Below, piece by piece: positions 105 through 341 of a stretch of 64,000 bases of DNA (positions are counted from its first letter, which is position 1; each line of letters begins with the position of its first letter). A model generated the notes under the pieces. That model was given only the letters and a program-made list of their open reading frames with translations. It had not been told where the DNA came from and made no database searches. The DNA is from Escherichia coli (lineage in GTDB: Bacteria > Pseudomonadota > Gammaproteobacteria > Enterobacterales > Enterobacteriaceae), in the NCBI RefSeq assembly GCF_003019035.1, contig NZ_CP027448.1; one strand, 5' to 3'. Both the position numbers and the translations under genes were made by a program.

Positions 105-315
105 AAACATTATGCAGGAAAGCACTGGACAGGAAAACATCGAACCTGTCACCGGAAATAGGCCAGTCAGTGAATACCTGGTGAAATCGCCTCACCAGAG
201 AAAAAATGGCGGTTTTGCTGACACCAGTCTGCGCAGAAATGCGCGGGTACGACAGTGACTCGTCAAATCTCAGCTGTAGCACACGCAGGATCAATTCCGG
301 ATTATCTGCCAGTAC
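105..315 (-). pseudogene. IS66-family orfA (accessory protein) N-terminal fragment, truncated
   Basis: Minus-strand translation (...VLADNPELILRVLQLRFDESLSYPRISAQTGVSKTAIFSLVRRFHQ...) is near-identical to the N-terminus of the orfA at 12188-12865; similarity stops exactly at the IS66 terminal sequence at 317. Confidence 0.55.
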
Positions 316-341
316 CGTAAGCGCCCCATCTGCGACGTCTT

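Follow-up and report, generated by a model that had tools for sequence, protein, structure and literature searches.

The IS66-type segment at positions 149-316 of the window, i.e. the whole 64,000-nucleotide stretch of Escherichia coli DNA analysed here, is in all likelihood a non-functional tnpA remnant lying in transposon debris on a large E. coli virulence-type plasmid. The IS66-family element that directly adjoins it, hereafter copy 1, is now the breakpoint of a rearrangement between the source of this remnant, hereafter element Y, and the gene asrC, and is not the inner member of a preserved nest. The features on which this reading is built are the following.

1..63, minus strand: C-terminal coding end of the tnpC of element X, a different IS66-family element, which reaches about 114 bp to the left of the window
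55..148, plus strand: internal remnant (94 nt) of the transposase gene of ISEc45, an IS110-family element
149..316, minus strand: remnant (168 bp) of a Y-type IS66-family tnpA/orfA, a pseudogene matching the orfA of copy 2 and intact Y elements
317..3015, plus strand: IS66-family copy 1, 2699 bp from GTAAGCG to CGCTTAC, recognised by its Pfam domains and termini
399..1073, 1070..1417 and 1437..2983, plus strand: the tnpA, the tnpB and the frameshifted tnpC of copy 1
3016..3173, plus strand: 3' end of asrC (anaerobic sulfite reductase), the right flank of copy 1
12135..14832, plus strand: IS66-family copy 2, Y-type, 2698 bp, with the variant left terminus GTAACCG and a frameshifted tnpC

The identification of the remnant arises from an inverted match inside the window. 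When positions 1-400 were compared by blast with the whole window, 149-317 aligned with 12399-12231 at 96.45% identity over 169 nt and 0 gaps (E = 2.5e-77), and the same inverted pair was recovered by a repeat search of the window. The matched stretch corresponds to nt 44-212 of the copy 2 orfA (12188-12865), that is, to about codons 15-71 of 225. Comparison of copy 2 with the elements at two other loci, L004 and L005, defined the Y-type element as being 2703 bp long and as beginning with GTAAGCGCATCATTTAAACC. On this scale the fragment covers nt 103-270, in the N-terminal helix-turn-helix region of tnpA, and it shows 99.4% identity to the tnpA of the intact 2703-bp elements at L004, at L005 and in many other E. 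coli records, an identity that extends to hundreds of E. coli tnpA genes.

The first-pass annotation had described a minus-strand orfA fragment at 105-315 that matches the N-terminus of the orfA at 12188-12865. The alignment that it proposed with the region 12188-12450 does return significant identity rather than none, and the inverted match bears out the opposite orientation of the fragment and copy 1. The fragment is indeed a minus-strand piece of an IS66 orfA, but the match lies near the N-terminus, the first 15 codons being absent, and the span given by homology is 149-316. On the left, the homology to Y breaks off sharply at 148/149, and positions 105-148 belong to the ISEc45 remnant; the limit had been drawn at 105 because an open reading frame (46..414, minus strand) was followed. 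On the right, the description of a cut at the terminus of copy 1 was accurate, since Y-type sequence runs up to 316 and the GTAAGCG at 317-323 adjoins directly, with an uncertainty of 1-2 nt due to the first G or GT of this terminus, which matches Y too.

What is left of Y at this site falls far short of an element. Y nt 1-102, with the left inverted repeat, the leader and the start of orfA as far as codon 15, are missing at one end, and all that follows orfA nt 212 is missing at the other, so that the fragment has no start, no C-terminus, no tnpB, no tnpC and neither inverted repeat; it belongs to the IS66 family as the derivative of a tnpA-tnpB-tnpC element. Searched against Pfam, its 55-aa translation gave sub-threshold helix-turn-helix matches only (the best being Sigma70_r4_2, with 19.7 bits against a cut-off of 25.7), and HTH_Tnp_1 was not detected in it, this domain lying at residues 101-159 of the full orfA, in the part that has been lost. 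With no start codon, no above-threshold Pfam domain and no IS ends, no present function of the fragment is plausible. In the related plasmids, the RefSeq PGAP annotation marks it as an incomplete IS66-like TnpA and a pseudogene, and likewise marks all pieces of this debris patch as pseudogenes. The feature is thus already known, both in kind, as a standard IS mosaic, and as a specific piece annotated in public records.

The probability that the similarity is due to chance, or the arrangement to an assembly artefact, is practically negligible. Chance is contradicted by the E value of the in-window match and by the 99.4% identity to hundreds of tnpA genes. As to an artefact, the junction between Y and copy 1 (316/317) recurs in six complete RefSeq records of E. 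coli plasmids, which were independently assembled and come from the USA, Switzerland and elsewhere. This reading was considered as already refuted by the match statistics and the recurrence of the junction.

Copy 1 carries the domains of an IS66-family element, with Pfam matches to HTH_Tnp_1, TnpB_IS66, LZ_Tnp_IS66, zf-IS66 and DDE_Tnp_IS66 (PF05717, E = 9.7e-39; PF03050, E = 1.4e-99; also PF13005 and PF13007), as well as the inverted repeats of this family, GTAAGCG at 317-323 and CGCTTAC at 3009-3015. Its termini were fixed independently in three contexts where the flanks diverge, namely the window, the locus L008 and the locus L009. Compared with the copy present in plasmid p35A2a (VG35A2), it is 99.5% identical apart from a 2-bp indel. 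A 2-bp (GT) insertion at 2835-2836 frameshifts its tnpC into ORFs 1437-2840 and 2837-2983, and, with this split, the 'complete' copy 1 is probably transposition-defective itself. In the RM8082 plasmid p1RM8082, an IS100 (IS21-family) insertion about 1.2 kb into copy 1 separates its tnpB from its tnpC.

In a preserved nest, the inner element must have outer sequence to its left and to its right, with an 8-bp duplication of that outer sequence. In the window, the inner element is complete, with both termini, and the outer element is broken precisely where the inner one ends, but the outer sequence is not colinear on the two sides, Y orfA standing on the left and the 3' end of asrC on the right. 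More precisely, window 3016-3173 is 88.6% identical to L006 2501-2658, within an intact plasmid asrC, the homology beginning exactly at 3016, and the asrC piece is labelled incomplete by PGAP. No 8-bp target duplication of copy 1 was found, the flanking octamers being CCAGTACC on the left (309-316) and GGTAAACC on the right (3016-3023). Simple insertions by relatives of both elements do leave such duplications: a copy-1-type element in ycaQ (L009), 98.6% identical to copy 1, has a perfect 8-bp duplication GCATAAAC, and the intact Y element in L005 has CATTTTTC on both sides. In addition, when the left end of Y was looked for elsewhere in the window, with a 27-nt probe allowing at most 3 mismatches and by the blast comparison of positions 1-400, only copy 2 was found. 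The right boundary of the fragment therefore coincides with the outermost nucleotide of the copy 1 left inverted repeat, on the left the fragment meets ISEc45 in a blunt junction, and the two flanks of copy 1 are mutually unrelated.

A side observation concerns the region beyond the right flank. Directly after the asrC fragment, a gene for an S6-family serine-protease autotransporter (SPATE) of 1299 aa occupies 3339-7238 on the minus strand, the N-terminal part of which presumably resembles Tsh/Hbp; in L005, a similar 'S6 family peptidase' adjoins the Y-type IS66 element.

These comparisons bear on the claim that copy 1 interrupts the orfA of an older, oppositely oriented IS66 element. Because the fragment is cut at the exact terminal nucleotide of the copy 1 left inverted repeat, the boundary has the mark of a junction formed by transposition of copy 1, which would thus have arrived later, and to that extent the claim stands. 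That an intact simple nest still exists, with copy 1 inside the older orfA and both halves flanking it, is highly improbable: the exact end of the fragment at the GTAAGCG terminus and the opposite orientation are what such a nest predicts, but CCAGTACC and GGTAAACC form no duplication, asrC occupies the right flank, Y has lost its left end, and the left side meets ISEc45 after only 168 bp. For the present sequence, this possibility is refuted by the comparison of the flanks, and only an ancestral state could have had such a form. A junction at an IS terminus is thus, taken alone, no proof of a preserved nested insertion.

Two predicted reciprocal junctions were built, the first joining the right end of copy 1 to CCAGTACC and the left end of Y, the second joining upstream asrC to GGTAAACC and the left end of copy 1, and both were absent from 5,426 complete E. 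coli genomes. The right end of copy 1 is, moreover, present only once in the related plasmid C311. The lack of reciprocal junctions and this single right end point to deletion or loss rather than inversion. The sole full-length match to the synthetic probe was at L008, where the junction is a different one. In this locus (4084-4240, on the chromosome of E. coli FDAARGOS_1262), the right end of a copy-1-type element adjoins nt 131 of a Y/copy-2-type element, 28 nt from the position of the junction in the window (Y nt 103); the left inverted repeat of Y is kept there, the other flank is unrelated, and there is no target duplication.

The loss could also have occurred in a single intramolecular step, copy 1 being resident at the 3' end of asrC and its left end attacking the Y orfA with deletion of the intervening DNA. 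We regard this as a real but rather doubtful possibility. A single event would account for both the junction at the exact terminus and the missing duplication, and the single right end in C311 and the lack of any reciprocal product are in agreement with it. Nevertheless, an asrC::copy 1 insertion with a duplication of GGTAAACC was not found anywhere in the search of complete E. coli genomes, and IS66-family transposition is not known to produce adjacent deletions. The resulting sequence would, besides, be indistinguishable from the product of recombination between two copies; both routes fit the data and are retained as candidates.

To the left of the fragment, the rest of the interrupted element had been expected beyond the edge of the window. 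The DNA to the left was taken from p1RM8082 (L001), which is identical to window 1-558, and from p35A2a (L003), and instead of Y it shows the ISEc45 remnant, the X 3' end and another fragment of the IS110 family. Window 55-148 matches L002 5711-5804 at 93/94 nt, inside the annotated ISEc45 transposase CDS WP_000555401.1. The X fragment contains a Pfam DDE_Tnp_IS66_C domain (PF13817, E = 2.5e-12), the terminus of X (GTAAGCG) lies at L001 11886, to the left of the window, and this 3' end of X is 94% identical to L002 5001-5180, a part of an element whose tnpC holds an intact ISEc45. The junction between ISEc45 and Y (148/149) is blunt, with 0 microhomology, and, as it is internal to both elements, it is attributed to an illegitimate deletion.

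Bases 55-63 (ACAGCAGAG), which are common to the ISEc45 remnant and the X fragment, constitute the microhomology of another deletion. Plasmid p35A2a shares both junctions of Y and keeps 459 bp more, comprising the insertion junction between X and ISEc45 and the 5' part of ISEc45. This comparison shows that the window version derives from a p35A2a-like form by deletion between the 7-9-bp (AC)AGCAGAG repeats (window 55-63). The ISEc45 remnant of p35A2a has, in comparison with intact ISEc45, a deletion of its own of 80 bp between GCCAGGTTA direct repeats (L003 about 6410). As regards the distribution of these arrangements, the window matches a family of plasmids of about 140-165 kb from cattle and farm E. 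coli, and three further GenBank plasmids match over the X/ISEc45 segment as far as window 150.

The arrangement of the X 3' end, ISEc45 and the Y 5' part, in both order and orientation, is also compatible with a single old hybrid element, interrupted by ISEc45 in its tnpC and having lost about 3 kb internally between ISEc45 and orfA, in which case the IS66 elements would number three. The layout is exactly that of the L002-type element interrupted by ISEc45, i.e. right inverted repeat, tnpC C-terminus, ISEc45 on the opposite strand and tnpA side. Such an origin is nonetheless improbable, given that the intact Y elements (L004, L005 and copy 2) have 3' ends dissimilar to that of X; at the nucleotide level, the X 3' end resembles neither that of Y nor those of copy 1 and copy 2. 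Furthermore, the X-type elements bearing ISEc45 carry short tnpA genes unrelated to that of Y (141 aa in L002, 118 aa in L007), the Y fragment has no match in the whole of L002, X tnpA included, and no such hybrid was seen among the listed or examined records with a Y-like tnpA. As main reading, the identity of X and Y was rejected on the unrelated 3' ends and tnpA genes in all intact references. With their 3' ends and tnpA genes being unrelated, X and Y are best regarded as two distinct elements.

With X, Y, copy 1 and copy 2, the first 15 kb and their margin consequently hold the traces of at least four IS66-family elements, which deletions have rearranged, so that the earlier estimate of at least three IS66 insertion events holds and was an undercount. 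Copy 2 is 96.15% identical over its full length to the 2703-bp Y element of L004, and its left inverted repeat was placed by a search of the window with a left-end probe. Its tnpC is split into ORFs 13232-13897 and 13663-14802, and no target duplication was found around it, GTTTTTGC (12127-12134) facing CCACAGAT (14833-14840). The missing duplication and the mutated left terminus suggest that copy 2 either occupies a rearranged site or has itself decayed. Further along the window, an inverted repeat pair of 397 nt, 99% complementary, has its arms 12 kb apart at 15454-15850 and 27924-28320, and a 52-nt stretch (27887-27938), 88% identical to the interior of the Y tnpC, overlaps one of these arms by 15 nt (27924-27938); the pair and this stretch are probably further remains of IS66-family elements, on either side of an invertible or composite segment.

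Based on the sequence comparisons above, the following history can be proposed as the most economical one, in which the order and the mechanism of the joining, of the loss and of the ISEc45/Y fusion are inferred. Element X would have inserted first, and ISEc45 would then have inserted into its tnpC, while a Y element would have been present nearby in the same orientation as X. The left end of a copy-1-type element would have been joined by the IS66 transposase, through insertion or through an intramolecular event, into the orfA of this resident Y, which was oppositely oriented. The complementary side, i.e. the first 102 nt of Y, left inverted repeat included, together with the 8-bp duplicate, would then have been lost or exchanged in a rearrangement anchored on copy 1, either by homologous recombination with a second copy-1-type element in asrC or by an IS-mediated adjacent deletion, each of these routes leaving copy 1 as a bridge between the Y orfA and the 3' end of asrC. 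Independently, an illegitimate deletion would have fused nt 212 of the Y orfA to the middle of the ISEc45 copy in the X tnpC. Finally, in the lineage of the window, the further 459-bp deletion between the 7-9-bp (AC)AGCAGAG repeats would have trimmed the X/ISEc45 junction. Among the plasmids found, none is an ancestor with an intact Y, with the complete nest or with copy 1 in asrC between duplicated target sequences.

In terms of known systems, the closest are the IS66-family insertion sequences of E. coli, which include IS679, ISEc8 and their relatives; the PGAP annotation names the elements no further than 'IS66 family'. The elements of this family in E. coli share the tnpA-tnpB-tnpC arrangement with the IS66 Pfam domains, a size of about 2.7 kb, the GTAAGCG...CGCTTAC termini and 8-bp duplications on simple insertion, whereas the fragment retains only 168 bp of tnpA, without termini or any intact gene, and copy 1, as it stands in the window, lacks a target duplication and has its tnpC frameshifted. 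Large Enterobacterial virulence and resistance plasmids commonly contain nested IS insertions and IS-bounded deletions in their mosaic regions. The window resembles them in that the terminus of a later IS stands against an internal position of an earlier one and that the surroundings are a patchwork of truncated IS3, IS21, IS66, IS110 and IS256 genes. It differs from a nested IS in that one half of the nest is missing, the inner element being followed by unrelated DNA (asrC), which makes it a rearrangement junction. As for ISEc45, carried in RefSeq as 'IS110-like element ISEc45 family transposase', an internal part of its transposase gene survives in window 55-148 at 99% identity, but these 94 nt include neither end, the left one having been removed by the 459-bp deletion, and cannot be mobile.

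The target site of ISEc45 deserves mention in its own right. ISEc45 lies at the same tnpC position, at the codons of the conserved motif ...GKKN|YMFFG..., in diverged IS66-family hosts (L002 5221-6667 and L007 about 5220-6667), the two ISEc45 copies being about 100% identical and their IS66 hosts only 84-94%. The reconstructed empty site has 220/220 identity in other genomes, from which it follows that ISEc45 is a precise 1447-bp insertion in these codons. The arrangement of the X 3' end with ISEc45 was found in 591 genomes, and the ISEc45 probe in 705 genomes; ISEc45 occupies about 1,400 places in E. coli. These data suggest that ISEc45 is site-specific for IS66-family tnpC, with a programmed targeting of IS66-family transposase genes. 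The IS110 family is the family of the RNA-guided 'bridge' recombinases, and members of the IS110/IS1111 family are known to target other mobile elements, so that the tnpC preference of ISEc45 is a lead rather than a surprise.

In the same line, the ends of copy-1-type elements stand against the first ~130 nt of Y-type elements at two independent junctions (Y nt 103 in the window and Y nt 131 in L008), and these n=2 cases may reflect a local insertion preference of copy-1-type ends in the Y 5' region. From the two Y junctions 28 nt apart and from the ISEc45 site, it might be proposed that IS66-family elements and genes would be preferred targets of other insertion sequences rather than random debris, a generalisation that we hold to be unlikely.

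Beyond its correct annotation, the fragment matters little. The Y/copy 1 and ISEc45/Y junctions, the 459-bp deletion that sets the window lineage apart from p35A2a and the IS100 of p1RM8082 are nonetheless ordered rearrangement markers, and the 80-bp ISEc45 deletion of p35A2a and the IS100 insertion of p1RM8082 are, each on its own, useful lineage markers. This series of rearrangements could therefore be of use in resolving the phylogenetic position of these plasmids associated with cattle and farms.
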